From Chlamydiota bacterium (GTDB taxonomy: Bacteria > Auribacterota > JACPWU01): 64,000 nt of DNA. The position numbers were made by a program, and so were the translations under genes. Below, one piece after another: positions 4,850-60,914 of this stretch. The notes below the pieces were generated by a model. It did no database searches, was not told the origin of the DNA, and saw only the letters and a list, made by a program, of their open reading frames with translations. Location: the NCBI GenBank assembly GCA_016178055.1, contig JACOUC010000048.1:425-64424 (forward strand), written 5' to 3'. Numbering within the stretch: position 1 is the stretch's first letter; each line of letters begins with the position of its first letter.

Positions 4850-5907
4850 TTTAGCCTTCCATTTTCTTTCAGTAAAGTAGACATTAATCCTAGGAGCGCA
4901 GAAAAGATTTTGATCATTTTCTTTGTATTTTGGGTTGGAAGTGTTAAATGGAGAATTTGAGAACGTTCAATGGATTTTTCAATAATATCGTTGATCCCTG
5001 TAAGATGTTTAGAAGAACGTTTGGAGGGATGAAGGGTTTGGCGAATAAGACGAGCTTTATTTTTTTCTAAGAATTCGGCCGCAGTCCTTTTCCCACGCGA
5101 AATTGAAGAGGGCATTGAAAAAACTTCTTTGAGATGATGATCCAGAAAACCAGTTGCTTTTTGGCGGAAGGACTCAAGATCAAAGGCTCCAAAATATTTT
5201 CTAAAAAAAAATTCTAAGGTCTCTTTCATTTCACTTTGAGGTTTGTGAAGATCTTGAGAGGAGGGATGCGGCTTTTTTCGGGCATAGCGATGAGCTATTT
5301 TCTCGATGAACTTCAATTTTTTTAGGGCATTTCCTTGGTAGGAAGAGTGATCTTCATGAGGGTCTAACCAGGCTGCAAAGGTATCAGAAAAATCCTCTTC
5401 AGGGTGCGTTCTTGAATAGCCCATGGATGCGGCTCCCCAGCGCTCAAGATAATTCACGTAATTTGTAGTCAGGGGGTCAACTTCGCTCAAAGGAATGCGT
5501 TTAGAATTGAAACGTCCAAATAGTTTCCGAGCAGTTTTATTTTTCCCAAGGTTATAAGCGTAGAAAAGGGCATGGCCGCATTCATGCCGTAAAAGGGCTT
5601 TGATTTGGTGATCTTCTAAAGTCTCCCGCCGCTCACTTCCAACCCATCGATTTAATTCTACCAGTTCGGGACGAGCGAGATAAAAAGGGATTCCAATATT
5701 AACGGTATCTTGGACGCATCCAAATTCATCTGAAAGATAGAAAAAAGGTTTATAGATTAAATCATGTTTTTTGAGTTCTTGGCGAATATTTTTAATGAGG
5801 GGTTCGTATCTTGAGCCGGCAATTTTTAAGGGAAGAAGAAAAAGGGGGGTCATCAGAAACTCATACTGCAACGTTTCTTTGCTGTAGAGGGTCTTTTGTA
5901 TGCTCAC
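4846..5907 (-). CDS. Putative zinc metallopeptidase (HExxH)
   Basis: LRHECGHALFY contains HExxH. The overall family call is recollection only. Confidence 0.5.
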   Translation of the reverse strand: MSIQKTLYSKETLQYEFLMTPLFLLPLKIAGSRYEPLIKNIRQELKKHDLIYKPFFYLSDEFGCVQDTVNIGIPFYLARPELVELNRWVGSERRETLEDHQIKALLRHECGHALFYAYNLGKNKTARKLFGRFNSKRIPLSEVDPLTTNYVNYLERWGAASMGYSRTHPEEDFSDTFAAWLDPHEDHSSYQGNALKKLKFIEKIAHRYARKKPHPSSQDLHKPQSEMKETLEFFFRKYFGAFDLESFRQKATGFLDHHLKEVFSMPSSISRGKRTAAEFLEKNKARLIRQTLHPSKRSSKHLTGINDIIEKSIERSQILHLTLPTQNTKKMIKIFSALLGLMSTLLKENGRLN

Positions 5908-5965: not shown

Positions 5966-6092
5966 ATTTAAAATTCAAAAGTCAAAATGCAAAATGACAA
6001 CCTAAAATCCAAAATTTATAATGCTATTGCAGGGGAGACATTTTAAGTTTTACATTGTCCGACAAGATTTTTGATGTTTGATTTTTGGATTA
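5966..6092. repeat. Heptamer-periodic hairpin element, AAAATCA flavour, subfamily 2 (D)
   Basis: Arms aaaattc|aaaagtc|aaaatgc|aaaatga and tttttga|tgtttga|tttttgg. Centre aatgctattgcaggggagacatttt is shared with 60753-60914 and, inverted, with 55315-55435. Confidence 0.8.
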
Positions 6093-12327: not shown

Positions 12328-12453
12328 AATAAATTAAAAATCAAAACGCAAAAATCAAAATGACAAATTAAAATTCAAAAAAATAAATAGCTTTAAAAGT
12401 TTTTCATAAATCTCTACCATAATTTTGATTTTTGATGTTTGATTTTTGGATTT
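12328..12453. repeat. Heptamer-periodic hairpin element, AAAATCA flavour, subfamily 1 (A)
   Basis: Arms tcaaaac|gcaaaaa|tcaaaat|gacaaat and aattttg|atttttg|atgtttg|atttttg. Core aaaaaaataaatagctttaaaag (12377-12399). Shares gtttttcataaatctctaccataattttgat with 13526-13647 and 49932-50044. Confidence 0.85.
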
Positions 12454-12457
12454 TCTT

Positions 12458-13528
12458 ATGAACACACTTATTCATGCAAGGAAATTGACGCGGCGCTATG
12501 GGGATCAGGTTTTGGCCCTGGATCAAGTGGATCTTACTATTCATCAGGGGGAATGGCTGGCGATGATGGGGCCTTCAGGATCAGGGAAAACGACCTTGCT
12601 TAATTTGCTAGGCTGTTTGGATCAACCTACGGATGGAGAAATCTGGTTTGAGGGTAAGCTTACGACAGCTTTAGATCGAACAGAGCTTACCCGTTTTCGA
12701 AGAGAAAATGTGGGGTTTGTTTTTCAGCAATTTCATCTGGTGGATTATCTAACTGCTTTAGAAAATGTGATGGTGGCCCAGTATTATCACAGCATGGTGG
12801 ATGAAGAAGAAGCAAAAAGGGCCTTAACTGAGGTAGGATTGTCTGAGCGTCTTCATCATTATCCCTGTCAACTTTCTGGAGGAGAACAGCAAAGGGCCTG
12901 TATTGCCAGAGCTTTGATTAATCGTCCCAAACTGATTTTGGCTGATGAGCCTACGGGAAACCTGGATGAGAAGAGTGAAGAGGTGGTGCTGGACCTTTTT
13001 AGAAGTTTGCATAGAGAAGGTCATACCATTTTGATGGTGACCCACGATATCACCGTCGGTAAAATGGCCGATCGCCAAATCCAGCTTGAACATGGTAAAA
13101 TCATTGGTTCTTATCTCACTTCTCTTCAAGCCGAAGAGGATATCGAGAATCTCTTAAAAAAATTATGGGAATTAAAAGAGGAGGGCAAACTCTCTTATCA
13201 ATATTTAGAGAATGCTGATTTTCTGGATCATGCGGGAACATTAAAATATATGGGAATAAAAGGTCTGCTAGAGTTTTCCCCGGGGAAGGTTGCATTGACC
13301 GATGAGGGAGAGCGTCGAATGAAAGATGTGATTCGAAGACATCGACTGGCAGAGATCCTTTTTTCTCAAACCTTGCGGATGGATAAGGATCGCTCGGATA
13401 AGGAGGCGTGTCAATTCGAACATCTTCTTGATCCTGAAATGACGGAGAAGATTTGCTCTTTTCTTGAGCATCCGAAATTCTGTCCCCATGGCCGTTTGAT
13501 TCCACCGGGGGAATGCTGTAAAAAATAA
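12458..13528 (+). CDS. ABC transporter ATPase (MacB/LolD-like) fused to a complete DtxR/MntR-like metal-sensor module
   Basis: Walker A GPSGSGKTT, signature LSGGEQQR, Walker B LILADEPT. C-terminal ~140 aa reads IRRHRLAEILF...DKEACQFEHLLDPEMTEKI...CPHGRLIP and parallels DtxR (RKHRLAERLL...DEACRWEHVMSDEVERRL...PFGNPIP). Confidence 0.8.
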   Translation: MNTLIHARKLTRRYGDQVLALDQVDLTIHQGEWLAMMGPSGSGKTTLLNLLGCLDQPTDGEIWFEGKLTTALDRTELTRFRRENVGFVFQQFHLVDYLTALENVMVAQYYHSMVDEEEAKRALTEVGLSERLHHYPCQLSGGEQQRACIARALINRPKLILADEPTGNLDEKSEEVVLDLFRSLHREGHTILMVTHDITVGKMADRQIQLEHGKIIGSYLTSLQAEEDIENLLKKLWELKEEGKLSYQYLENADFLDHAGTLKYMGIKGLLEFSPGKVALTDEGERRMKDVIRRHRLAEILFSQTLRMDKDRSDKEACQFEHLLDPEMTEKICSFLEHPKFCPHGRLIPPGECCKK

Positions 13529-13647
13529 ATCAAAAATCAAAATGCAAATGTCAAAATGACAAATTAAAGTTCAAAAATCAAATGGTTTCGGAAGTTTTTC
13601 ATAAATCTCTACCATAATTTTGATTTTGATATTTAACTTTTGGATTT
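13526..13647. repeat. Heptamer-periodic hairpin element, AAAATCA flavour, subfamily 1 (B)
   Basis: Same orientation and centre as 12328-12453. Confidence 0.85.
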
Positions 13648-15301: not shown

Positions 15302-16156
15302 CTATTTAAGAAGTTTCTTGTAAAGGGATCTTAAACTTTGGGTTAGGGGGCCGGGTTTTCCACTTCCAATCTTCTTTCCGTTGGATTCAACCCAGGGGAC
15401 AATTCCCATGAGGGCATTGGTAAGAAAGGCTTCATTGGCTTGAATAATCTCATCAGGGTGAATGGATCTTATCTCAGGTTTAAGATCCAAAGAGGGACAT
15501 CGTTCTAAAATAATTTTTCGTGTAATGCCACCCAAAATACCATCTTCCTGAGGAGGGGTGATCAGTTTCTTTCCTTGGATTAAGAAGAGATTACTGGCTG
15601 TTCCTTCGGTGACACCATTTTTTGTATTGAGGAAAATTCCTTCATCCACTTCTTTTTCGAGGGCCTCCATTCTTCCTAAAATATTATCGAGATAATTAAG
15701 CGATTTAATTTGTGAGAGGGGTGAAGTCTCATTTCTGCGGATGGGAAGTGTGAGGGTGCGATAGCCTCGTTCGTAAATTTCTTCACGAAAGGGGAGAAAT
15801 TTCCTACTAATAATGATGAGGTTAGGTTTCCCTGAAACGATAGGGGGGATAGACCCCATCCATTTTCCGCGTGTGACGCTTAGACGAATGTAACAATCAT
15901 CCAGTCCACTTTCCAAAACGGTTTTATTAATCAGAGAAAGAATTTCTTCCGGTTTCCAGGCGGGTTCAATTTTGAGAATTTCCATCCCATAGAAGAGTCT
16001 TTGGATATGAGCTTCAAGCCCGATCGCTTTTTCATTTATGAACCTGAGACTCTCAAAAATTCCATCTCCAAAGAAAAGTCCTCGGTCTAAAATCAATTCT
16101 GGAGCTTCATTTTCCTTGAAAAACCGGTTGTTGAAATAAATAAGATTTTGAGACAT
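15302..16156 (-). CDS. pabC: Class IV aminotransferase-fold protein, likely aminodeoxychorismate lyase
   Basis: FGDGIFESLR and the class-IV fold pattern. Sits immediately downstream of, and overlapping, the pabB-like gene. Confidence 0.7.
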   Translation of the reverse strand: MSQNLIYFNNRFFKENEAPELILDRGLFFGDGIFESLRFINEKAIGLEAHIQRLFYGMEILKIEPAWKPEEILSLINKTVLESGLDDCYIRLSVTRGKWMGSIPPIVSGKPNLIIISRKFLPFREEIYERGYRTLTLPIRRNETSPLSQIKSLNYLDNILGRMEALEKEVDEGIFLNTKNGVTEGTASNLFLIQGKKLITPPQEDGILGGITRKIILERCPSLDLKPEIRSIHPDEIIQANEAFLTNALMGIVPWVESNGKKIGSGKPGPLTQSLRSLYKKLLK

Positions 16157-17528
16157 TAAAAAAGATACTCCCCTTTGCCAGTGTTTCCTCATACTCCTTT
16201 TCAGGATCGGAATCGGCTACGATTCCCCCTCCCACCTGAAATGAAATTTTATTCTGGCTCCGGATTAAGGTTCGAATCAGGATTGAAAGATCACTGACTC
16301 CATTGAATCCAATGGTACCGAAGATACCCGTATAAAGATTCCGTCGAGTGGGCTCAAGTTCCTCAATGATTTCCATCGCACGGATTTTAGGAGCGCCCGT
16401 AATAGAGCCACCTGGAAAAATAGCTCTGAGGCAATCAAAGGGGTCGACTTTTTGTTTTAAAATTCCTTGAACGGTTCCTACCAAATGGAAAACATTGGGG
16501 TGAGACTCGATGCGTTTTTGTTCTAAGACTTGAACGGAGCCATATTCACAAACCTTGCCCAAGTCATTTCTTTCTAGATCAATAATCATGAGGAGTTCAG
16601 CCGCATCCTTGCGGCTTTCAAGTAATTCTTGTTTAAGTTGAGAGTCCTCAAGAGGGGTCTTGCCTCGAGGTCGAGTTCCTTTAATGGGACGAGTTTCGAT
16701 TTGACGATTTTCTATCCTTAAAAATCGTTCAGGGGACAGGCTGACGAGATCAAGCTCTGGAGTATGAAAATAGGACGCAAAGGGAGCCGGCTGATTTGTA
16801 GCCAGGGTCTTGAATAAGGAAAAGGAATCTCCCGAAAAAGTGGCTGAGAATCTTTGAGAGAGATTGGCTTGGTAAATGTCCCCTTCAGCAATGTAGTTTT
16901 TAATCTTTTGAATGGTGTTGAGATAATTCTCTTTGGTGAAGTTTGAAACAAAGGGTTGAATTTCTAGTTCGTTTTGGTCCTCTGTCTTCTGTCTTCTGTC
17001 TTCTTCTGATAGCGCCTGCTTCAGCCATTGAATCTTATTCAGAGCTTGTTGAGAATTTTCTCCTGGAAGTGGAATAGCAATCAACATTCCTTTTTTTTTA
17101 AGGTGATCATAAAGATAAGCCCGATCATAAAAACCAACGCAGATATCGGGATAGTTTTGATCGTCTTTTGAAAACGAAGGAATTTTTTCGAGCATTCGGG
17201 CTAGATCATACCCAAAGTAACCGACCAGTCCTCCTTGAAAGAAGGGAATGTTTTGAAAAGGAAGGACATATTCTTTAAAAAGATTTTGAAGGATGGAAAG
17301 GGGATCCTGAGAAAAAATTTTTTCTATTTTTTGGTCAGAGTTTTCAATTTTGATATGAGGGCCTTTACTTTTAAAGGTTAAGAAAGGATCCCATCCCAAG
17401 AGGCAGTACCGCTCATGATGAAGAAAAAAGGCGTAAGGTTTTTTGCTCAGGGTTTGGAAAAGGTTGAATAAATCAATTTCGTTTAAGGGGTCAATGAAGG
17501 GGTTAAGCTCTGACATTTTAGTTTTCAT
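16107..17528 (-). CDS. pabB: Aminodeoxychorismate synthase component I (chorismate-binding enzyme)
   Basis: FPGGSITGAPKIRAMEII motif. Pairing with pabC favours PabB over TrpE. Start set at ATG 17528, beyond the neighbouring stop at 17548. Confidence 0.8.
   Translation of the reverse strand: MKTKMSELNPFIDPLNEIDLFNLFQTLSKKPYAFFLHHERYCLLGWDPFLTFKSKGPHIKIENSDQKIEKIFSQDPLSILQNLFKEYVLPFQNIPFFQGGLVGYFGYDLARMLEKIPSFSKDDQNYPDICVGFYDRAYLYDHLKKKGMLIAIPLPGENSQQALNKIQWLKQALSEEDRRQKTEDQNELEIQPFVSNFTKENYLNTIQKIKNYIAEGDIYQANLSQRFSATFSGDSFSLFKTLATNQPAPFASYFHTPELDLVSLSPERFLRIENRQIETRPIKGTRPRGKTPLEDSQLKQELLESRKDAAELLMIIDLERNDLGKVCEYGSVQVLEQKRIESHPNVFHLVGTVQGILKQKVDPFDCLRAIFPGGSITGAPKIRAMEIIEELEPTRRNLYTGIFGTIGFNGVSDLSILIRTLIRSQNKISFQVGGGIVADSDPEKEYEETLAKGSIFFNVSKSYLFQQPVFQGK
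16979..17006. repeat. In-frame heptamer array inside pabB
   Basis: cctctgt|cttctgt|cttctgt|cttcttc on the + strand. Encodes part of EEDRRQKTEDQ. Confidence 0.6.
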
Positions 17529-17547
17529 CTTTTGTGATGTTGTAATG

Positions 17548-19254
17548 TCAAATGTCAAGACTTGACCCCAGGTGCGTTTTCTCGAGAAGTTCAAGGATTT
17601 CTTTGCGTTTAATTTTGAGGGTGGTTGTTTTGGGGAGTTCATTCCAGATTTCAAAACCTCGGATTTTTTTGTAGTCGGCGAGTCGAAGATTCGCTCTTTT
17701 TACAGCCTCAGAAAGAGTTTCTTGAATAAGAGGAAGGTCAATCGACATTTTTTCGAGAGGGGTTCCCTCCGGATAAAAGGAAGTAAGCTTTGGAACGAGA
17801 AGGGCATAGACAACCTCATCTCCGGCAAACCCTTTCGAATCTTTCTTGAGGCCGACGATACAAGATTCTTGAATGGAAGAGGAGCGGTTGAGTTCTTCTT
17901 CCAATTCTTCAGGGTACACATTTTTCCCTCCCCGCGTGACGATAATATTCTTGAGTCGACCTGAAATATAGAGGTACCCTTTTGAATCAAAAAAGCCAAT
18001 GTCACCCGTATGGAACCAGCCGTCTTTCATAATTTCAGAGGTCGCCTCAGGATTTTTGTAATAACCTTTCATGATGTTGGGACCCCGTGCAATAATTTCT
18101 CCATTCATGATTTTGATCTCGACACCTGGGATGGGTCGGCCCACAGAGCCAATGGTGTTGTGGCTCGGGCTGTTCACGGTCAAGATAGGACTGGTTTCTG
18201 TGAGCCCATAGCCTTGATAGATCGGGATTCCAAGGATGAAAAATTCTTCGATGATTTTAGGGTCAATAGGGGCTCCTCCTGAAATGAAAAATCTAAGCCG
18301 ATGGCTCATTTTATCTCGGAGGGATTTAAAAAGGAGTCGACCCAAGGGAAAACCGGCCGAGAGGGAAATTTTGGAAAGTTTTTTTAAAATCTTAAAAATA
18401 ATTTTTTTCTTTTGAGGAAGTATTTCAATTTTTGAAATCATTTGGTGATACATCAATTGAATCAGGGCTGGAACAGCAACTAGTAGGGTTCCTCTGTTTT
18501 CATGCATTCTTTCTAAAAGAATAGGACCTTTTAAATTCTCAACATAGGTGATGGTTCCCCCGGTATAAAGGGGAATCAGAAAATCGGCTGTGATGGCATA
18601 GGTATGGCAAAGGGGTAGAACAGAGATAAAGTGATCATTAGATGAGAAAGGAAAAACGGATGAAACAGATTTGACATTAGAGATGAGATTCCCGTGGCTG
18701 AGCATGACCCCTTTAGGAGATCCAGTCGTGCCAGAAGTATAAAGAATAATGGCAAGATCCTCAGATGTTATTTTTTCAAAAGGAATGGATTGATTTTTAC
18801 CTTCTTTGACAAGTTGATCTAGGGAAAGCCATTTCCCTTTAGAGTCTTTCCCATCTAAAATGATGATGTTGGGATGAATGGGACTTCGCTCAGAAATGGA
18901 TGAGACCGTATCAAGGAATTTGAGAGAACTGAAAATGAATTTACATTCAGCATGGTCGATGATGTTTTGAATGGAGTGGTCCTTCAGTTTGTTGTCGATC
19001 GGGACAACGACCCCTCCACATAAAAGAATGCTGAAAAATGCCATTCCCCAATAGGGAGAGTTTTCCGTGATGATCCCGATACGGTCCCCATGGATTACTT
19101 TAAGTTTTTTTAAAGCCGTGGCAACTTGAAAGGCTTTTTCATAGAGATCATGGTAAGTGACGCTAAAATAAGTTTTTCCCTCCTTAATTTGGAGAGCGAT
19201 TCGTGCACCAAAGGACGAATTGGCCGTTTGAATAAGGTGTGTGAGTGTATCCAT
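17548..19254 (-). CDS. Long-chain acyl-CoA synthetase (AMP-forming)
   Basis: AMP-binding motif ILYTSGTTGSPKGVMLSH, plus GYGLTE and GWFHTGD. Confidence 0.8.
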   Translation of the reverse strand: MDTLTHLIQTANSSFGARIALQIKEGKTYFSVTYHDLYEKAFQVATALKKLKVIHGDRIGIITENSPYWGMAFFSILLCGGVVVPIDNKLKDHSIQNIIDHAECKFIFSSLKFLDTVSSISERSPIHPNIIILDGKDSKGKWLSLDQLVKEGKNQSIPFEKITSEDLAIILYTSGTTGSPKGVMLSHGNLISNVKSVSSVFPFSSNDHFISVLPLCHTYAITADFLIPLYTGGTITYVENLKGPILLERMHENRGTLLVAVPALIQLMYHQMISKIEILPQKKKIIFKILKKLSKISLSAGFPLGRLLFKSLRDKMSHRLRFFISGGAPIDPKIIEEFFILGIPIYQGYGLTETSPILTVNSPSHNTIGSVGRPIPGVEIKIMNGEIIARGPNIMKGYYKNPEATSEIMKDGWFHTGDIGFFDSKGYLYISGRLKNIIVTRGGKNVYPEELEEELNRSSSIQESCIVGLKKDSKGFAGDEVVYALLVPKLTSFYPEGTPLEKMSIDLPLIQETLSEAVKRANLRLADYKKIRGFEIWNELPKTTTLKIKRKEILELLEKTHLGSSLDI

Positions 19255-19441: not shown

Positions 19442-20665
19442 ATGCCTTTGGTTTTGACTTTGATTTTCCTTTTGGTGGGTTACGGTATTTCGGAATATTT
19501 CTTCCATTTTAGAAATCGAAATTCTATCCCTCTCAGAATCCATGTGAATGGCACCCGTGGAAAATCCAGTGTAACCCGTTTGATTACAGCGGGATTGAGA
19601 GAGGGGGGCTTTAAGGTATTGGCCAAGACGACGGGGACAGAACCTAGAGTAATTTTTGAAGATGGTTCTGAAACTCAAATTTATAGGCCAGGGTCGGCCA
19701 ATATTATTGAGCAGGTCAAATTTTTCTCAAGGGCTCGTTCCAGAGGCGCCAAGGCCGTGGTTGTGGAATGCATGGCCTTACAGCCTGTTCTTCAGTGGTT
19801 GACGGAAGATCGGATGGTTTGTGCTCAAATAGGCGTGATTACAAATGTTCGACCGGATCATATGGATGTGATGGGTGAAACGTTAGAGGATGTTGCCAGG
19901 GCCCTTTCGAATACGATTCCACTCAAAGGAAAACTTTTTACTGCAGAAAGCAATTCTAAAATTTTGAAGCAATTGGAAGATGAGTGCCAAACCCGTAGCA
20001 CAGAAATTGTGACCTGTGGGGAAGAAGAAGTTTCATGGGATGCGATGCGGGGTTTTAGCTATATTGAACATCGTGAAAATGTAGCGCTTGCTTTAAAGGT
20101 GTGTCAGTCTTGTGGCGTGGAGAGTAAAAAGGCTTTTTCAGGAATGGTGAAGGCTATTCCCGATCCAGGGGTCTTAAGGGTTTATCAGATTCATTTCTTC
20201 GACAAAGATATTCAGTTTGTAAATGCCTTTGCAGCCAACGATCCTGATTCTACGCTGCTGATTTGGAAACTCATGGGCGAGAGAATGGAGCCCGATCGTA
20301 AAAAAATTGTGATGGTGAATGCCCGTGCAGATCGAATTCAGAGAAGTGAGCAGATGGGAATTTTAATTGCTCAAGCATTAAAGGCAGATGCCTATCTTTT
20401 GGTAGGGGATTACACCAAGGCGATAGAAGATGAAGCGATTCGGTTGGGATTAGACGGAGATAAGATTGAAAATTTAGGGGGGCAATCCGTTTCGGATATT
20501 TTCGAGCAAGTTTTACATCATACCCCTTTAAAATCAATGGTTTTTGCGATCGGAAATATTGGGGGGCTGGGTCAACAAATTGTAGATTTTTTTAAACATC
20601 GAGGGGCATCGGATGATCGAACAGTCAATCGGCTTGGGACTGGTATTGAGCCTTATATTTTCTGA
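19442..20665 (+). CDS. pgsB: Poly-gamma-glutamate synthase PgsB/CapB
   Basis: N-terminal TM, Mur-ligase P-loop VNGTRGKSSVTRL. Followed by pgsC. Confidence 0.85.
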   Translation: MPLVLTLIFLLVGYGISEYFFHFRNRNSIPLRIHVNGTRGKSSVTRLITAGLREGGFKVLAKTTGTEPRVIFEDGSETQIYRPGSANIIEQVKFFSRARSRGAKAVVVECMALQPVLQWLTEDRMVCAQIGVITNVRPDHMDVMGETLEDVARALSNTIPLKGKLFTAESNSKILKQLEDECQTRSTEIVTCGEEEVSWDAMRGFSYIEHRENVALALKVCQSCGVESKKAFSGMVKAIPDPGVLRVYQIHFFDKDIQFVNAFAANDPDSTLLIWKLMGERMEPDRKKIVMVNARADRIQRSEQMGILIAQALKADAYLLVGDYTKAIEDEAIRLGLDGDKIENLGGQSVSDIFEQVLHHTPLKSMVFAIGNIGGLGQQIVDFFKHRGASDDRTVNRLGTGIEPYIF

Positions 20666-23145: not shown

Positions 23146-23194
23146 CTCAAGGTTAAACGTTGAACATTTAACCTTGAACTTTGAACAATGTTCT
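23146..23194. repeat. Heptamer-periodic hairpin element, GTTYAAA flavour (K1)
   Basis: ctcaagg|ttaaacg|ttgaaca|tttaacc|ttgaact|ttgaaca. Perfect 10-bp stem caaggttaaa/tttaaccttg. Confidence 0.7.
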
Positions 23195-28936: not shown

Positions 28937-28984
28937 GAAAAAAAGACAGCGGATATGTTTTTCTCTCGAACGCTATCCGCTGTC
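28937..28984 (-). terminator. Rho-independent terminator of glnB-glnA
   Basis: Minus strand reads gacagcggata-(18 nt)-tatccgctgtc followed by ttttttt. Lies 17 nt after the glnA stop. Confidence 0.8.
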
Positions 28985-29000
28985 CGCTAAACGCTATACC

Positions 29001-30990: not shown

Positions 30991-31030
30991 CTTAAAAAAG
31001 TTAAAAGTTTAAAGTTGAAAGTTAAAAGAA
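30991..31030. repeat. Heptamer array, GTTYAAA flavour, single arm (K2)
   Basis: aaaaagt|taaaagt|ttaaagt|tgaaagt|taaaaga. Confidence 0.6.
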
Positions 31031-31606: not shown

Positions 31607-31671
31607 ATAAATTTCAATAATCTTTCTAGATTATCGTTTGGAAGCGAAAGTTCTCCCCATCATACTTTTTT

Positions 31672-31730
31672 TGTAGTCGCCCGATTTATCGGGCAGTCCA
31701 TGTAACGGCCCCATAAATGGGGCGACTACA
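31672..31730. repeat. Composite GC palindrome (two hairpins inside a closing stem)
   Basis: tgtagtc [gcccgat-tt-atcgggc] agtccatgtaacg [gccccat-aa-atggggc] gactaca. Confidence 0.75.
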
Positions 31731-31765
31731 AATCAAAATGGGTCTAATTTAAATTAAATTCTTTT

Positions 31766-39135: not shown

Positions 39136-39177
39136 GTCACCAGTCTCCAGTCTTCAGTGACCGATGACCGGTGACCC
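39136..39177. repeat. Heptamer-periodic hairpin element, GGTGACC flavour (P2)
   Basis: ccagtct|ccagtct|tcagtga|ccgatga|ccggtga. The stem gtcaccagtc/gaccggtgac fills the ntrC-glnD spacer. Confidence 0.65.
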
Positions 39178-40629: not shown

Positions 40630-40687
40630 AGACCACAGACCACGGACCACAGACCATTGTACGGACTGTCGACCGTCGACCGTGGTC
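40630..40687. repeat. Heptamer-periodic hairpin element, GTCNACN flavour (G1)
   Basis: agaccac|agaccac|ggaccac|agacc - attgtac - ggactgt|cgaccgt|cgaccgt|ggtct. Confidence 0.75.
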
Positions 40688-43016: not shown

Positions 43017-43030
43017 ACGACAGTTTAAAG

Positions 43031-43085
43031 TTAGAAGTTGAAAGTTTAAAGTTCACCCGCCTCGCCTGCGGCGGGAGGCTGGGAA
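43031..43085. repeat. Heptamer array (GTTYAAA flavour, K3) plus GC mini-hairpin
   Basis: gtttaaa|gttagaa|gttgaaa|gtttaaa|gttcacc, then cccgcc-tcgcctgc-ggcggg (43066-43085). Confidence 0.65.
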
Positions 43086-43114: not shown

Positions 43115-43201
43115 ATGCCATGTGGTCGTAAGAAAAGAAAATCAAAGATGAATAAACACAAAAGAAAAAAGAGAAGTCGTCAAGATCGACATAAGAAATA
43201 A
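43115..43201 (+). CDS. 28-aa highly basic micro-protein, bS22 (AURKAIP1/COX24-domain)-like ribosomal protein candidate
   Basis: RBS aaggagg (43102-43108) 6 nt upstream of the ATG. Product MPCGRKKRKSKMNKHKRKKRSRQDRHKK. The KMNKHKRKK core resembles bS22/mS38 as I recall them. A terminator follows. Confidence 0.55.
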   Translation: MPCGRKKRKSKMNKHKRKKRSRQDRHKK

Positions 43202-43214
43202 TCCTTTTATCAAT

Positions 43215-43262
43215 CCCTGTTTTAGAGTGGAATACCCTCTCTGAAACAGGGGTTTGTGTTTT
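43215..43262 (+). terminator. Rho-independent terminator
   Basis: ccctgttt...aaacagggg followed by tttgtgttttc. Confidence 0.7.
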
Positions 43263-43294: not shown

Positions 43295-43393
43295 ATGAAA
43301 ACGAGCCCATAGTCAACGATCTACAGTCCATAGAAAATAAATGATTCCTTTAAAACTGTCGACCATTGACTGTGGACTGTAGACCATTTTCAT
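43295..43393. repeat. Heptamer-periodic hairpin element, GTCNACN flavour, full-length archetype (G2)
   Basis: atgaaaacgag - catagtc|aacgatc|tacagtc|catag - core aaaataaatgattcctttaaaa (43334-43355) - ctgtcga|ccattga|ctgtgga|ctgtaga - ccattttcat. Confidence 0.85.
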
Positions 43394-43441
43394 CTGCTGT
43401 AGATGAAAATTTATGATGACAAATTAAACGAGAAAATAGTT

Positions 43442-44323
43442 ATGACTCAAAGTGTGCATGTTCGCTCACCCGCGAAGGTCAATCTTTTCTTAGAGGTGAT
43501 TAGGAAAAGAGAGGATGGCTATCATGATCTCAAAACCGTTTTTCAAGAGATTGATTTATGTGATGAGATTGAGGTCAGCCTATGGGACAAAAAGGAAATT
43601 AGGATTAGCACGAATGTTTCGGATATTCCTACCGACTCGACCAATTTAGCCTATCGGGCCGCTCAGGCTTTTTTAGAGATAGTAGGGATCGACAGGGGCG
43701 TTCATATTCGAATCGATAAAAAAATTCCCGTTGCGGCTGGATTGGGTGGAGGTTCTAGTAATGCTGCGGCTACTTTAAAGGCCTTAACAAAGCTGTTTCA
43801 AACAGATTTGCCAAAAGATAAAATTTTCCAAATAGCCCGTCAATTAGGGGCTGATGTCCCTTTCTTTTTAATGGGTGGAACAGCTTTGGGAGAGGGGATT
43901 GGGGATCAATTAACACCGCTTGATATTTCTCCATCGCTTGATTTTCTCTTAGTGAATCCCAATTTTAAAGTTCCAACACCTAGGGTTTATCGGGCTTTAA
44001 AATTGGGCGAAACGAAAATAAATTTAGACATTCATCGGATGGTGGCCTCCCTTAAAAAAACAAATTTGCGGGAGTTATCATCTCTCCTTTATAATCGCTT
44101 GGAAGAGGTTGTCTTTGAATCTTTTCCTCAATTAGGAGAAATAAAGGAAGTCTTGAAACGTTTAGGGGCTGAGGGTGTCCTTTTGTCGGGAAGCGGTCCG
44201 ACCCTTTTTGCATTGGTGGGTTCACCCGAAGAGGGTTTAAAAATACAAACTCAATTCCATAAAAATTTTTCTTCTAAATTTTGGACCGCTTTAACTAAAA
44301 CAAACTTCACTTTTCCGTCTTAG
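43442..44323 (+). CDS. ispE: 4-diphosphocytidyl-2-C-methyl-D-erythritol kinase
   Basis: SPAKVNLFLEV N-terminus, GHMP motif PVAAGLGGGSSNAAA. The tracked upstream start 43403 lies inside a hairpin. Confidence 0.85.
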   Translation: MTQSVHVRSPAKVNLFLEVIRKREDGYHDLKTVFQEIDLCDEIEVSLWDKKEIRISTNVSDIPTDSTNLAYRAAQAFLEIVGIDRGVHIRIDKKIPVAAGLGGGSSNAAATLKALTKLFQTDLPKDKIFQIARQLGADVPFFLMGGTALGEGIGDQLTPLDISPSLDFLLVNPNFKVPTPRVYRALKLGETKINLDIHRMVASLKKTNLRELSSLLYNRLEEVVFESFPQLGEIKEVLKRLGAEGVLLSGSGPTLFALVGSPEEGLKIQTQFHKNFSSKFWTALTKTNFTFPS

Positions 44324-44377: not shown

Positions 44378-44782
44378 ATGGAAATCACCAATGTCAAAGT
44401 TCATCTGAAAGAATCTCATGGGAGTAAGTTAAAAGCTTTTGTAACGATTACCTTTGATGAAATGTTCGTCGTCAGGGATTTAAAGGTGATCGAAGGTAAA
44501 AATGGCCCTTTCGTTGCTATGCCTAGCATCAAGATGAAAGAGCCCTGTGTTAAGTGTAGTCGAAAGATTCCCATCCGAAGTAAATTCTGTCCTGAGTGTG
44601 GAGCAAGGCTTCCCGAAGTATCATTCCATAATTATCATGATGAAGAGCATCGAGAAGACCACAAAGACATTGCCCACCCCATTACCGCCGAAGCCAGAGA
44701 CATTATCCAAAAGAAGGTCCTCGAGGCCTATTACGCTCTAACAGACAGTTCAAACAAATACGGTTCAAAGTCTAAGGTTTAA
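44378..44782 (+). CDS. spoVG: SpoVG family protein with inserted zinc-ribbon
   Basis: MEITNVKVHL...FVVRDLKVIEGKNGPFVAMPS and DIAHPITAEARDIIQKKVLEAY align to SpoVG. A 46-aa segment with CVKC-x12-CPEC replaces the usual ~9-aa loop. Confidence 0.8.
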   Translation: MEITNVKVHLKESHGSKLKAFVTITFDEMFVVRDLKVIEGKNGPFVAMPSIKMKEPCVKCSRKIPIRSKFCPECGARLPEVSFHNYHDEEHREDHKDIAHPITAEARDIIQKKVLEAYYALTDSSNKYGSKSKV

Positions 44783-44852
44783 AGTTCAAGGAAAAGACCT
44801 GAGCATGCAGAATCTTTAAACTTTGAACTTTAAACTTTAAACTTTGAACTGT
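44762..44852. repeat. Heptamer-periodic hairpin element, GTTYAAA flavour (K4)
   Basis: ggttcaa|agtctaa|ggtttaa|agttcaa - aaaagacctgagcatgcagaat - ctttaaa|ctttgaa|ctttaaa|ctttaaa|ctttgaa. The left arm encodes the last codons and stop of spoVG. Confidence 0.8.
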
Positions 44853-44857
44853 ATTGA

Positions 44858-45036: not shown

Positions 45037-45118
45037 CAGTTGAAGGTTTAAAGTTCAAAGTTCAAGGATTTCGAGGTCGGTTTTTTTCTTTAAACTTTCA
45101 ACCTTAAACTTTAAACAG
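45037..45118. repeat. Heptamer-periodic hairpin element, GTTYAAA flavour, inverted relative to K4 (K5)
   Basis: cagttga|aggttta|aagttca|aagttca - atttcgaggtcggttttttt - ctttaaa|ctttcaa|ccttaaa|ctttaaa. Confidence 0.8.
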
Positions 45119-46407: not shown

Positions 46408-46497
46408 AATTGACAATAACAATAAAGGTAAAATAAATAAATTCCTAAATTATCCATTTTCAATTGTTAATTATCAATTAAGAATTATCAATTAAGT
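46408..46497. repeat. Heptamer-periodic hairpin element, CAATTAA flavour (N1)
   Basis: attgacaataacaataaagg - core aaaataaataaattcctaaa (46430-46449) - ccatttt - caattgt|taattat|caattaa|gaattat|caattaa. Includes an exact 14-nt tandem duplication at 46469-46496. Confidence 0.75.
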
Positions 46498-46512: not shown

Positions 46513-47448
46513 ATGAAGGAGATGGCGGTTTTTTCAGGCACTTCGAATCCTGAATTGGCAAAAAAAATTGTCGATTATCTCAATATACCTCTTGGAGAAG
46601 TCGAGATCTCTCGATTTAGTGAGGGAGAGATTTTTGTTCGGGTGAAACAGGATGTTCGGGGACGCGATGTTTTTCTTGTTCAATCGACGTGTCCTCCGGT
46701 GAATGAAAACCTGATGGAACTTTTGATTATGATGGATGCTTTTTTGAGGGCCTCTGCGGCTCGTCTGACCGTGGTGCTTCCTTATTATGGCTATGCCCGT
46801 CAGGACCGTAAGGATCAGCCCCGTGTTCCGATTTCTGCGAAGCTTGTGGCCAATCTTATTACTGCCGCGGGGGCAGATCGAGTGCTGACCATGGATCTTC
46901 ATGCGGACCAGATTCAAGGTTTCTTTGATATTCCTCTCGATCATTTATTTTCGGCGCCTGTTTTCATTCGTTATCTCAAAAGTTTAAAATTGGACAATAT
47001 GGTCATTGTCACTCCGGATGTAGGAGGAATTAAACGGGCCAGGGCCTTTGCAACTCGTTTGGGAGCCGATTTGGCGATTGTCGATAAAAGACGGGTCAAT
47101 TCAGTTGATGCAGAAGTTCTTCATCTGATTGGAGATGTCCGAGGGAAAACAGCGATCATTGTGGACGATATGATTGCAACGGCTGGCTCTCTGGCGGAGG
47201 CAGCAAAAATTGTGGATGAAAATGGAGCAAGCCAGATTTATGCGACCGGGGCTCATGCGATTTTGTCGGGTCCAGCCACTGAGAGAATTCAGAAAACCCG
47301 TTTAAGAGAGTTGGTCGTGACAGACAGCGTTCCTTTAGGGGGAAAGGCCCTCGATCATAAAATCAGGGTTCTCACCGTTGCAGAGCTCTTGGGAGAAGCG
47401 ATTCGAAGAATACATGAGAATGAATCCGTCAGCTCACTTTTCATATAA
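46513..47448 (+). CDS. prs: Ribose-phosphate pyrophosphokinase
   Basis: FSGTSNPELAKKI, DLHADQIQGFF, PRPP loop VDDMIATAGS. Start could be 46501, 46513 or 46522. Confidence 0.9.
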   Translation: MKEMAVFSGTSNPELAKKIVDYLNIPLGEVEISRFSEGEIFVRVKQDVRGRDVFLVQSTCPPVNENLMELLIMMDAFLRASAARLTVVLPYYGYARQDRKDQPRVPISAKLVANLITAAGADRVLTMDLHADQIQGFFDIPLDHLFSAPVFIRYLKSLKLDNMVIVTPDVGGIKRARAFATRLGADLAIVDKRRVNSVDAEVLHLIGDVRGKTAIIVDDMIATAGSLAEAAKIVDENGASQIYATGAHAILSGPATERIQKTRLRELVVTDSVPLGGKALDHKIRVLTVAELLGEAIRRIHENESVSSLFI

Positions 47449-47530
47449 GTTTAAACTGTTTTTGATTTTGTTTTTTCTTTGAACTTTAAACTCTTGCCCC
47501 GTTGAATAACGGGGTTAAACTTTTAACTGT
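47448..47530. repeat. Heptamer element (GTTYAAA flavour, K6) with embedded GC hairpin
   Basis: aagtttaaactg...ctttgaactttaaactc, then ccccgtt-gaata-aacgggg (47497-47514). Probably serves as the prs terminator. Confidence 0.65.
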
Positions 47531-48860: not shown

Positions 48861-48936
48861 GCTGTAGGTTGTAAGCGATAAGTTTTAAAGGAATTTTTTT
48901 TCTACTTACTACTTACTATTTACTACTTACTATTCT
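48861..48936. repeat. Heptamer-periodic hairpin element, GTAAG/CTTAC flavour (T1), core inverted
   Basis: ctgtagg|ttgtaag|cgataag - ttttaaaggaattttttttt (inverted core) - ctactta|ctactta|ctattta|ctactta|ctattct. Confidence 0.8.
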
Positions 48937-49931: not shown

Positions 49932-50044
49932 GAAAATCAAAAATTAAATATCAAAATGACAAATTAAAAATCAAAAATTAAATTGTTTCAGAAGTTTTTC
50001 ATAAATCTCTACCACAATTTTGATATTTGATGTTTGATTTTTGC
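49932..50044. repeat. Heptamer-periodic hairpin element, AAAATCA flavour, subfamily 1 (C)
   Basis: Shares gaagtttttcataaatctctacca-aattttgat with 12328-12453 and 13526-13647. Confidence 0.85.
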
Positions 50045-50392: not shown

Positions 50393-50429
50393 GGCCGCGA
50401 CTGGTGACAGGCGACCGGTGACCATTTTT
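50393..50429. repeat. Heptamer-periodic element, GGTGACC flavour (P3)
   Basis: ggccgcgactggtgacaggcgaccggtgaccattttta. Shares the 16-mer gactggtgacaggcga with the minus strand at 39126-39141. Confidence 0.6.
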
Positions 50430-50888: not shown

Positions 50889-51002
50889 ATGAAAAACGAG
50901 TCCACGGTCAACGGTCAACAGTCTACAGAAAATAAATAATTCTTTTAAACTGTCGACCATTGACTGTCGACTGTAGACCCATTTTCATCCACTTGGGTGG
51001 AC
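50889..51002. repeat. Heptamer-periodic hairpin element, GTCNACN flavour (G3) plus 22-mer attttcatccacttgggtggac
   Basis: atgaaaaacgag - gtccacg|gtcaacg|gtcaaca|gtctaca - core aaaataaataattcttttaaa (50929-50949) - ctgtcga|ccattga|ctgtcga|ctgtaga - cccattttcat. The 22-mer spans 50981-51002. Confidence 0.85.
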
Positions 51003-51078
51003 AACACGTTTATGGCTACAGCTATGAAAATGAGAGCTTACAACTCGCCGCTGTTTTTAGCATGGGAAGCTTTTTTTG

Positions 51079-55314: not shown

Positions 55315-55435
55315 TTAAAAATCCAAAAATCAAATATCAAAAATCAAAATGACAATCTAAAACTTAAAATGTTTCCCTTGCAATGGCACTGGAGATTTTG
55401 GATTTTGATATGTCATTTTGCATTTTGATTTTTGT
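55315..55435. repeat. Heptamer-periodic hairpin element, AAAATCA flavour, subfamily 2, inverted (F)
   Basis: The centre cttaaaatgtttcccttgcaatggcactggagat is the reverse complement of the centres at 5966-6092 and 60753-60914. Confidence 0.8.
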
Positions 55436-55526: not shown

Positions 55527-55558
55527 ATGAAAATAGCTATAGGTTGTAAGTTGTAAGT
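55527..55558. repeat. Truncated element, GTAAG flavour (T2)
   Basis: atgaaaatag - ctatagg|ttgtaag|ttgtaag. No complementary arm before lpxD. Confidence 0.5.
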
Positions 55559-58795: not shown

Positions 58796-58896
58796 TGAAT
58801 AAAAAGAGTCTACGGTCCACTGTCTATAGTCCATAGAAATAAACGATTTCCTTGAAACTGTCGACTGTGGACTGTGGACTGTGGACTCGTTTTCAT
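58796..58896. repeat. Heptamer-periodic hairpin element, GTCNACN flavour (G4)
   Basis: aataaaaagag - tctacgg|tccactg|tctatag|tccatag - core aaataaacgatttccttgaaa (58837-58857) - ctgtcga|ctgtgga|ctgtgga|ctgtgga - ctcgttttcat. Confidence 0.85.
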
Positions 58897-60752: not shown

Positions 60753-60914
60753 AAATTCAAAATCCAAAAATCAAAATGCAAAATGACATATTAAAATCCA
60801 AAATTTCTAATGCTATTGCATGGGAGACATTTTAAATTTTACATTGTCCGACAAGATTTTTGCCGCCTGTGGCGAGCCACGCCCTTGGGCGGGATGTTTG
60901 ATTTTTGGATTTTT
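60753..60914. repeat. Heptamer-periodic hairpin element, AAAATCA flavour, subfamily 2 (E), carrying a nested 31-nt GC hairpin
   Basis: Collinear with 5966-6092 except for ccgcctgtggcgagccacgcccttgggcggg (60863-60893), inserted between atttttg and atgtttg. Confidence 0.85.

Follow-up and report, generated by a model that had tools for sequence, protein, structure and literature searches.

The 64,000-nt stretch of contig JACOUC010000048.1 from a Chlamydiota bacterium that was analysed here (positions 425 to 64,424 of the forward strand, hereafter the window) carries about 20 intergenic elements whose arms repeat with a period of 7 nt. In an element, which spans 40-160 bp, three to six degenerate 7-nt units lie on one side of an AT-rich centre (about 15-60 nt) and three to six complementary units on the other. 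These elements are real. They are best explained as a lineage-specific bloom of several small non-coding palindromic repeat families, and we lean, with moderate confidence, towards reading them as dispersed palindromes similar to MITEs (miniature inverted-repeat transposable elements) or REPINs, with slippage-prone arms like those of short tandemly repeated repetitive sequences (STRRs), shaped as DNA, their effects on mRNA being incidental. Dispersal is seen in near-identical whole elements lying in unrelated intergenic gaps, and in one family that recurs, inverted, at another locus of a related genome.

Heptamer-armed elements and their families

Tandem Repeats Finder returned 65 rows on the window, 30 with period 7 and 4 with period 14. 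When 21-nt segments were scored for lag-7 matches, those reaching 17 or more were intergenic in 18 cases and coding in 1, and none was found in the window at lags 2-6 or 8-12. Listed elements are present in 19 of the 34 gaps of at least 60 nt, and in 16 of the 17 such gaps between 39 and 61 kb; they are located 3' of genes, between convergent genes and in divergent promoter gaps. At least six heptamer flavours, unrelated to each other, occur within these 64 kb. About 15 elements are strong hairpins, with z-scores against shuffles from -1.8 to -11.9. Own left and right arms pair with a mean of -22.4 kcal/mol, compared to -7.0 kcal/mol across flavours, and in 14 of 15 elements the own arms outpair at least 97% of control arrays in which the letters within each unit had been permuted, period and composition being kept. 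An earlier note on this DNA had described the right arm as always of the complementary flavour of the left and had itself proposed a comparison with shuffled arrays as a test; arm complementarity withstands it.

The note had also named an assembly artefact as a possible source of error. This was rejected: an independent Logan assembly of the same organism (L081) is identical over 50889-50988, starting 6 nt inside the left terminus, so the element is no artefact of one assembler. The L081 contig ends fall within repeat arms on both sides, as multi-copy repeats are expected to cause such breaks. A CRISPR array was rejected on the absence of regular spacers, and coding repeats were rejected as period 7 is out of frame, the sole in-frame array lying at 16977-17004. 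This previously unlisted array (GTCTTCT x4, 95% matches, in the minus-strand ORF 16107-17654) reads EEDRRQKTED in frame and lies in the linker that joins the two domains of a chorismate-binding enzyme.

Alignments indicate at least five sequence families (A, B, C, D, E) plus singletons, each with its own arms, loops and termini. The three window copies of family A (43295, 50889 and 58796) are alignable over about 100 nt with 84% mean column identity, and their flanks are unrelated. They end in 11-nt terminal inverted repeats (TIRs); the termini ATGAAAACGAG...CCATTTTCAT, with ATGAAAACGAG/CTCGTTTTCAT as inverted repeats, were found in all three, in agreement with the shared termini noticed earlier. 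The six copies of family B have in common an A-rich left arm, in which a CAAAATGACA block is invariant, and a right arm rich in T; their centres are of three different kinds. GTTYAAA, GTAAG and GGTGACC types form further groups. The copies of families A and B are as follows.

43295..43393, + strand, family A copy 1, a 99-nt imperfect palindrome (covariance model R1, 107 bits)
50889..50988, + strand, family A copy 2, in the rplI-dnaB gap
58796..58896, + strand, family A copy 3, in the lpxA-lpxI gap (z = -9.1; right arm homogenised to CTGTGGA x3)
5966..6092, + strand, family B copy with centre type 2, in a divergent gap (AAAATCA/TGATTTT arms)
12328..12453, + strand, family B copy with centre type 1, separating two cistrons of an FtsX/ABC transporter operon (directly adjoined by the stop codon)
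13526..13647, + strand, family B copy with centre type 1, whose first triplet is the TAA stop of the upstream gene
49932..50044, + strand, family B copy with centre type 1, in the ssb-rpsR gap (z = -4.2)
55315..55435, + strand, family B copy with its own centre, in the skp-lpxD gap (z = -5.4)
60753..60914, + strand, family B copy with centre type 2, in the gap between a GFO-type oxidoreductase gene and lpxB (nested mini-hairpin at 60863-60893)

Copy 1 of family A reads, in order, TIR ATGAAAACGAG, four degenerate GTCNACN units, core AAAATAAATGATTCCTTTAAAA, four complementary units and TIR CCATTTTCAT, which confirms its earlier description as an imperfect palindrome with GTCNACN heptamer arms. 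As RNA, its minimum free energy (MFE) is -24.7 kcal/mol for the + strand and -40.1 kcal/mol for the - strand (z = -4.2; dinucleotide shuffles gave a mean of -12.9 +/- 2.8).

All elements had previously been assigned to a single family with one conserved core, around which the arms would have been replaced in a compensatory way. We consider this model extremely unlikely. The core pattern gave only 2 matches within 3 mismatches, and a profile hidden Markov model (HMM) built from the family-A cores recovered the three family-A copies and one copy in the related genome L082, with nothing else significant. At the other sites claimed for the core, the profile gave E = 15 (48884-48899) and E = 95 (46430-46445) or found nothing (12377-12399); as judged from these searches, the first two sites are not distinguishable from AT-rich background. 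The loop TTTTAAAGGAATTTTTTTT of the 48861-48936 hairpin likewise shows only a loose likeness to the inverted family-A core (E = 15). Family B presents the reverse pattern, with common arms but differing centres. What speaks for a common core is a loose motif, an A-run followed by TCCYT, that is central in about 11 of 18 loops of the window and L082 and may reflect composition only; it also occurs in one GC-rich metagenome contig (L114), and in the glmU-prs and pth-rpsF gaps it has the same orientation in both genomes while the arms differ.

The remaining elements, to which no strand was assigned, are listed below.

44757..44855, unstranded, GTTYAAA/TTTRAAC hairpin, the strongest of the window (-46 kcal/mol, z = -11.9); its left arm contains the spoVG stop codon, and tRNA-Gln is next, on the minus strand
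45037..45118, unstranded, GTTYAAA/TTTRAAC hairpin upstream of glmU
47448..47530, unstranded, partial GTTYAAA palindrome with a GC-rich mini-hairpin, between prs and the L25 gene (a gap of 10 nt in L082)
23146..23194, unstranded, short GTTRAAC-type hairpin (z = -3.8)
48861..48936, unstranded, GTAAG/CTTAC-type hairpin in the pth-rpsF gap
39136..39177, unstranded, short GGTGACC-type hairpin between two minus-strand genes (z = -3.4)
40630..40687, unstranded, GACCACN/GTCGACC hairpin with no long loop, in a divergent gap (weak family-A model match, 27 bits)
46408..46497, unstranded, asymmetric CAATTAA-type element, its left side having about 2.5 units and its right side 6.7 (z = 0.1, no better than shuffles)
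28940..29000, unstranded, partial copy of a family with AGCGTTY arms, absent from the earlier list
30991..31030, unstranded, direct heptamer array AAAAGTT x4.7 without hairpin
43022..43053, unstranded, direct GTTTAAA-type array followed by a small GC hairpin (same-flavour remnants at the orthologous L082 site)
55527..55558, unstranded, direct GTTGTAA array preceded by ATGAAAATAG, without hairpin

The earlier hairpin list therefore holds for about 15 strong hairpins. It does not for 30991-31030, 43022-43066 and 55527-55558, which are direct arrays without a complementary arm, nor for 46408-46497, 50393-50429 (z = 0.0) and 1818-1864 (z = -1.1), which fold no better than shuffles.

Smaller features accompany the elements. 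One family-B copy holds a 31-nt GC-rich mini-hairpin (60863-60893) within its right arm, which the other five lack, and similar small GC hairpins abut GTTYAAA arrays at 43055-43077 and 47496-47515; this suggests a second, still smaller insertion-prone element. At 43394-43442 and 51020-51040, fragments resembling parts of elements adjoin full copies (ATGAAAAT.. termini; ATGACAAATTAAA from the family-B left arm), and the gaps appear to be mosaics of decayed elements.

Related genomes and the origin of the elements

The closest DnaB relatives of the window are found in metagenome-assembled genomes (MAGs) labelled Chlamydiae or Chlamydiota (78% for the hairpin-rich GCA_016178005.1), with a further NCBI assembly, the hairpin-free GCA_964640155.1, at 71%, followed by Omnitrophota at about 56%. 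A GlmU scan of species-representative genome contigs gave no relative closer than 43%, and an exact-protein look-up of the ispE ORF as called, whose start is probably mis-called, gave no match. With glnA, glnB, amt, glnD, glnE, lpx genes, bamA and skp, the genes present point to a Gram-negative bacterium with a free-living way of life. The view of the earlier note that REP/MITE-like dispersed palindromes with heptamer arms occur here in a non-cyanobacterial genome is thus upheld.

The genome L082 (DnaB 78%) is syntenic with the window from hisG to msbA and displays the same hairpin architecture with other units:

glmU-prs gap of L082, arm units CAGAAGT / TTCTGAC
pth-rpsF and rpsR-rplI gaps of L082, arm units AGCGTTY
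ssb-rpsR gap of L082, arm unit an 8-mer
skp-lpxD gap of L082, arm units GTTRAAC
lpxA-lpxI gap of L082, arm units GGGTCAT
gfo-lpxB gap of L082, arm unit a 14-mer

In L139, a second region from the same sample, a GGACGAT direct array and a CGTCKTT/GACGAAC hairpin lie exactly where the window has two family-B copies. Together, L082 and L139 carry heptamer arrays, most of which form hairpin pairs, in 11 gaps orthologous to those of the window. The units differ in ten of these gaps, and only the hisG-side gap has the same flavour in the window and L082. Compact syntenic gaps, in which no period-7 array was found, are the rule in three further relatives (L084, L131, and L132 with L138; 71-74% identity). 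The rplI-dnaB gap, for instance, measures 192 nt in the window compared to 14-29 nt in four relatives.

Two families are common to the window and L082 at non-orthologous loci. The fabZ-lpxA element of L082 belongs to family A but is inverted; it scores 90 bits against the covariance model, and the alignment of all four sequences has a mean column identity of 79%. The partial element at 28940-29000 of the window matches the AGCGTTY family that occupies the L082 pth-rpsF and rpsR-rplI gaps. This is the strongest evidence for copying of whole elements to new sites.

A different kind of change is seen in another phylum. L095 was assigned to Terriglobia because one protein from a MAG of that group matches it with 94% identity. 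Its gene boundaries, some of them inside the his operon, hold hairpins with several heptamer flavours, and its acidobacterial relatives (L133-L135, 94% protein identity) keep orthologous hairpins. Between these relatives, one arm has gained or lost a single 7-nt unit at two gaps, and uncompensated substitutions occur at the degenerate unit position. As read from these alignments, the differences are direct evidence of unit-wise slippage.

Slippage of this kind might also account for the elements without mobility. Small ordinary stem-loops or heptamer microsatellites would then lengthen in place by 7-nt steps in permissive gaps, fold-back template switching would make the complementary arm, each site would acquire its own flavour, and families would arise by occasional gene conversion. 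The different heptamers in orthologous hairpins of the window and L082/L139 are in line with this scheme, as are the direct-only arrays, which may be precursors (30991, 43022, and 4483-4518 of L139), the whole-unit indels in one arm in Terriglobia and the excess of heptamer simple sequence repeats (SSRs) in bacteria, for which polymerase slippage has been proposed (PMC4679880, PMC4692102, citing Mrazek 2007). However, copies of family A and of family B can be aligned through arms, centre and termini although their loci are unrelated, and family A is present in a second genome, elsewhere and inverted; movement or copying of whole elements is therefore required, and growth in place without mobility appears unlikely.

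On this basis, we propose that the elements would spread as units, in the manner of MITEs or REPINs, through an enzyme encoded outside the window. Their arms would act as heptanucleotide microsatellites, gaining and losing whole units by replication slippage, and complementarity would be kept by the joint copying of both arms, possibly also by hairpin-templated repair. Selection would merely purge insertions that harm coding sequences or Shine-Dalgarno sites, which would be why the elements exactly fill the space from a stop codon to the next ribosome-binding site.

Several observations weigh against dispersal by mobility. The 64-kb window contains no transposase, RAYT or other candidate mobilising gene, and no target-site duplication was found at the three family-A junctions, where an AT dinucleotide is inseparable from the palindromic terminus. 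Many elements are single-copy within the roughly 100 kb examined and could thus have grown in place, and the direct evidence of slippage comes from Terriglobia, not from this lineage. The nine copies of families A and B all point the same way, along the + strand; this hints that transcription or replication constrains their direction, which would not be foreseen if the elements were purely selfish. Moreover, the near-complete occupancy of intercistronic gaps in two lineages could mean that the hairpins are useful.

Coding sequences also run into the arrays and use stop codons within them, in the window at 44757-44782 (SpoVG) and in L082 at 5538-5567, 19581-19615, 16826-16834 and 478-487 (GlmU, GFO-type oxidoreductase, FabZ and Fmt). 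The last few residues of these proteins are encoded by repeat units, and the elements therefore reshape gene 3' ends. L082 contains another dispersed repeat, GGTGACACGAGGTGTCATCCTGRGTGA..GCGAAGGATC, at about 1340-1400 and about 2320-2385, which at the hisG site is inserted within remnants of a GTTCAAR array. The neighbours of the 43295-43393 element are ispE and a tiny, very basic ORF with its own Shine-Dalgarno site (43116-43202, MPCGRKKRKSKMNKHKRKKRSRQDRHKK), which with its classic terminator (about 43218-43262) covers 43116-43262. This ORF is conserved in the same hisG-ispE gap of L082, and its product may resemble small ribosome-associated basic proteins.

Arm complementarity and possible roles

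The earlier note had taken compensatory replacement of the arms as a sign of selection on structure. This was not supported: a left arm pairs with the right arm of another copy of the same flavour almost as well as with its own (-19.3 compared to -22.4 kcal/mol), and in the family-A alignment both sides have changed in only 2 of 21 stem pairs. Selection on a sense-strand RNA was assessed by MFE and G-U counts on both strands and rejected for lack of bias, neither strand being consistently better folded and G-U pairs numbering 41 in the + strand folds and 57 in the - strand folds. Rfam covariance models gave no family for the elements in the window, with tRNA-Gln as the only match at gathering threshold and only sub-threshold miRNA-precursor noise in an E-value scan. 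The intrinsic-terminator pattern (a GC-rich stem with a 3-8-nt loop and a T-tract directly after the stem) was not enriched in the window, with 23 sites compared to 19 +/- 4.5 expected, and only the site at 50400-50419 overlaps a listed element; a promoter pattern scan showed no enrichment in the elements either. From these pairing, covariation, strand, terminator and Rfam results, together with the settings of the elements, the arms complement each other as expected of DNA palindromes that are passed on whole, and their complementarity does not speak for a selected RNA fold.

In polycistronic transcripts, the elements would nonetheless form long intercistronic stem-loops, which could act as repetitive extragenic palindromic (REP) sequences do, as barriers to 3' exonucleases or as RNase III substrates. 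A stronger proposal is that their structure is selected, the elements being intercistronic mRNA stabilisers, RNase III/E processing sites or attenuators that tune operon expression. Their placement in conserved housekeeping operons of two lineages, where they follow a stop codon and precede the Shine-Dalgarno site of the gene after it, their long and stable stems and the co-orientation of all A and B copies with flanking + strand genes would fit such a role. We nevertheless regard it as distinctly improbable: the sense strand has no folding or G-U advantage, the L082 cores stand in both orientations relative to transcription, elements are also present in divergent promoter gaps, covariation is minimal with no copy-specific compensation, the terminator pattern is not matched, and three related genomes have the same operons without elements.

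Paired arrays on opposite strands could also be binding sites of a global regulator or a nucleoid-associated protein. In Geobacter metallireducens, tandem repeat sites with units of 8, 8/9 and 7 nt form 24, 21 and 8 opposite-strand pairs, respectively; they were read as IHF/HU sites without a test and are absent from G. sulfurreducens (PMC2700814). As described there, these class 1-3 sites have the form of the elements studied here, with three to five tandem units of 7-9 nt in opposite-strand pairs of variable spacing, multi-copy, intergenic and sometimes intra-operon (proB-proA), and they too are absent from a sister species (PMC2700814). Their unit sequences are different, and no conserved termini or loops are described for them in the text consulted (PMC2700814). 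The likeness is one of form, the Geobacter class having no formal definition. Three heptamers would span 21 bp, or about two helical turns. However, at least six unrelated flavours in 64 kb, and others in the sister genome, would call for many specificities or for none, and no candidate binding protein was identified; an IHF consensus in the core was rejected on inspection, as it did not fit across copies. A protein-binding function is thus very unlikely in our estimation.

Comparison with known repeats and occurrence in other bacteria

Heptamer SSRs are in excess in bacteria, with polymerase slippage as the proposed cause (PMC4679880, PMC4692102); as of 2015, no detailed literature on heptameric repeats was reported to exist, and some inverted pairs were noted (PMC4692102). 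Intergenic examples are GGGAATC in Xanthomonas, GGGGAYT in Nostoc and TAACTGA in Beggiatoaceae (PMC4692102, PMC4679880). They share with the elements described here the intergenic heptamer excess, the occurrence at the same gene pairs in related species, the variation in length and sequence and some inverted pairs, but consist mostly of direct arrays of one dominant unit, whereas many flavours per genome, mostly in hairpins, are found here. For PVC (Planctomycetes-Verrucomicrobia-Chlamydiae) bacteria, we found no description of such elements in the literature.

In Nostoc, the P6b stem of the tRNA-Leu(UAA) intron is made of complementary heptamer repeats of the classes TDNGATT and NNTGAGT; its length varies by whole units, single 7-nt repeats being inserted or deleted, and at one site a repeat class has given way to the other (PMC4476775). 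With this stem and with the cyanobacterial STRRs, the elements of the window share the tandem arrangement of 7-nt units outside coding DNA, which is seen here in the 30 period-7 rows and the intergenic lag-7 excess. The STRRs have cyanobacterial hosts and are mostly direct arrays, whereas the host is here a PVC-group bacterium and the arrays are short (three to six units), mostly paired and inverted, and belong to dispersed families with conserved centres and termini. In a cyanobacteria-rich control (80 loci, 1.24 Mb), period-7 runs numbered 57, compared to 13 for period 6 and 9 for period 8, at a density of 0.46 per 10 kb compared to 2.66 in the window. When one crude test was applied to both, it gave an inverted partner for 6 of 63 control arrays and for 7 of 17 arrays of the window. 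The GTCNACN arm (GTCAACA, AGTCAAC) is a rotation of what we take to be the STRR3 unit, CAACAGT; the other flavours do not match. As a lead, Elhai et al. reportedly described in 2008 small dispersed repeats of Nostoc that are mobile and tied to hairpins and heptamer repeats.

REP sequences, bacterial interspersed mosaic elements (BIMEs) and REPINs are, like these elements, abundant extragenic imperfect palindromes whose inverted doublets form long hairpins, and are intercistronic, lineage-specific and non-autonomous (PMC3116915). The heptamer hairpins differ in the absence of the conserved GTAG/CGTC head that marks the 20-40-nt REP palindromes, and the 64-kb window has no RAYT/Y1 transposase gene. 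We know of no 7-nt periodicity in REPs. A separate REP/REPIN-like, GTAG-headed family, TTTGTAGTCGCCCGATTTATCGGGCAGT with an inverted partner 7 nt away, is common to the window (31670-31732) and the related MAG (1233-1330 and 8433-8620 of L082). The elements resemble MITEs in being small, non-coding and multi-copy with unrelated flanks, family A having TIRs, and near-identical copies are dispersed (three of family A and one in L082; six of family B). They are unlike MITEs in that the whole element, and not its ends alone, is palindromic and no target-site duplication was seen at the three family-A junctions; no parent insertion sequence was found in the 64-kb window.

A metagenome scan with the family-A arm pattern gave 44 loci with GC contents from 32 to 75%, and in many of them the family-A covariance model recovered full-length hairpins with stems down to -75 kcal/mol; only the partner arm and further arrays are informative here, because the loci were selected by the arm pattern. 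The same pattern had 0 matches in viral contigs, which gives no sign of a phage vector. At 2607-2709 of L114, a contig of 69% GC, a GTCGACA-arm hairpin of 41% GC has a loop, AAAAAGTAAATTCCTTATG, that resembles the family-A core, a likeness that, judged from sequence, could reflect horizontal spread or chance. The contrast with cyanobacterial STRRs drawn in the earlier note is fair but too narrow, the same architecture being present in Terriglobia and in metagenome contigs of 32 to 75% GC.

Heptamer-arm hairpins are a little-described kind of repeat that also occurs in unrelated soil bacteria. They might even form a widespread unnamed class (this PVC lineage, Terriglobia, Geobacter and some cyanobacteria), made or mobilised by machinery of their own or recognised by a conserved host factor whose footprint is 7 nt, and acting as true operon regulators, which seems to us rather unlikely. 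If so, the recurrence of GTCGACA-type arms across GC contents of 32 to 75% and the one family-A-like loop would represent horizontal spread of one element type.

For the genomes that carry them, the elements inflate intercistronic spacers in essential operons (rplI-dnaB, for example), can rewrite gene 3' ends, break short-read assemblies and probably give rise to long stretches of double-stranded RNA within polycistronic mRNAs. Should the class occur as widely as the metagenome matches suggest, it is an under-described part of bacterial intergenic DNA comparable to REPs. Variation in unit number could serve as a strain marker in uncultured lineages, and the elements offer a natural system for asking why seven is the favoured bacterial microsatellite period and how palindromes are tolerated and kept complementary.

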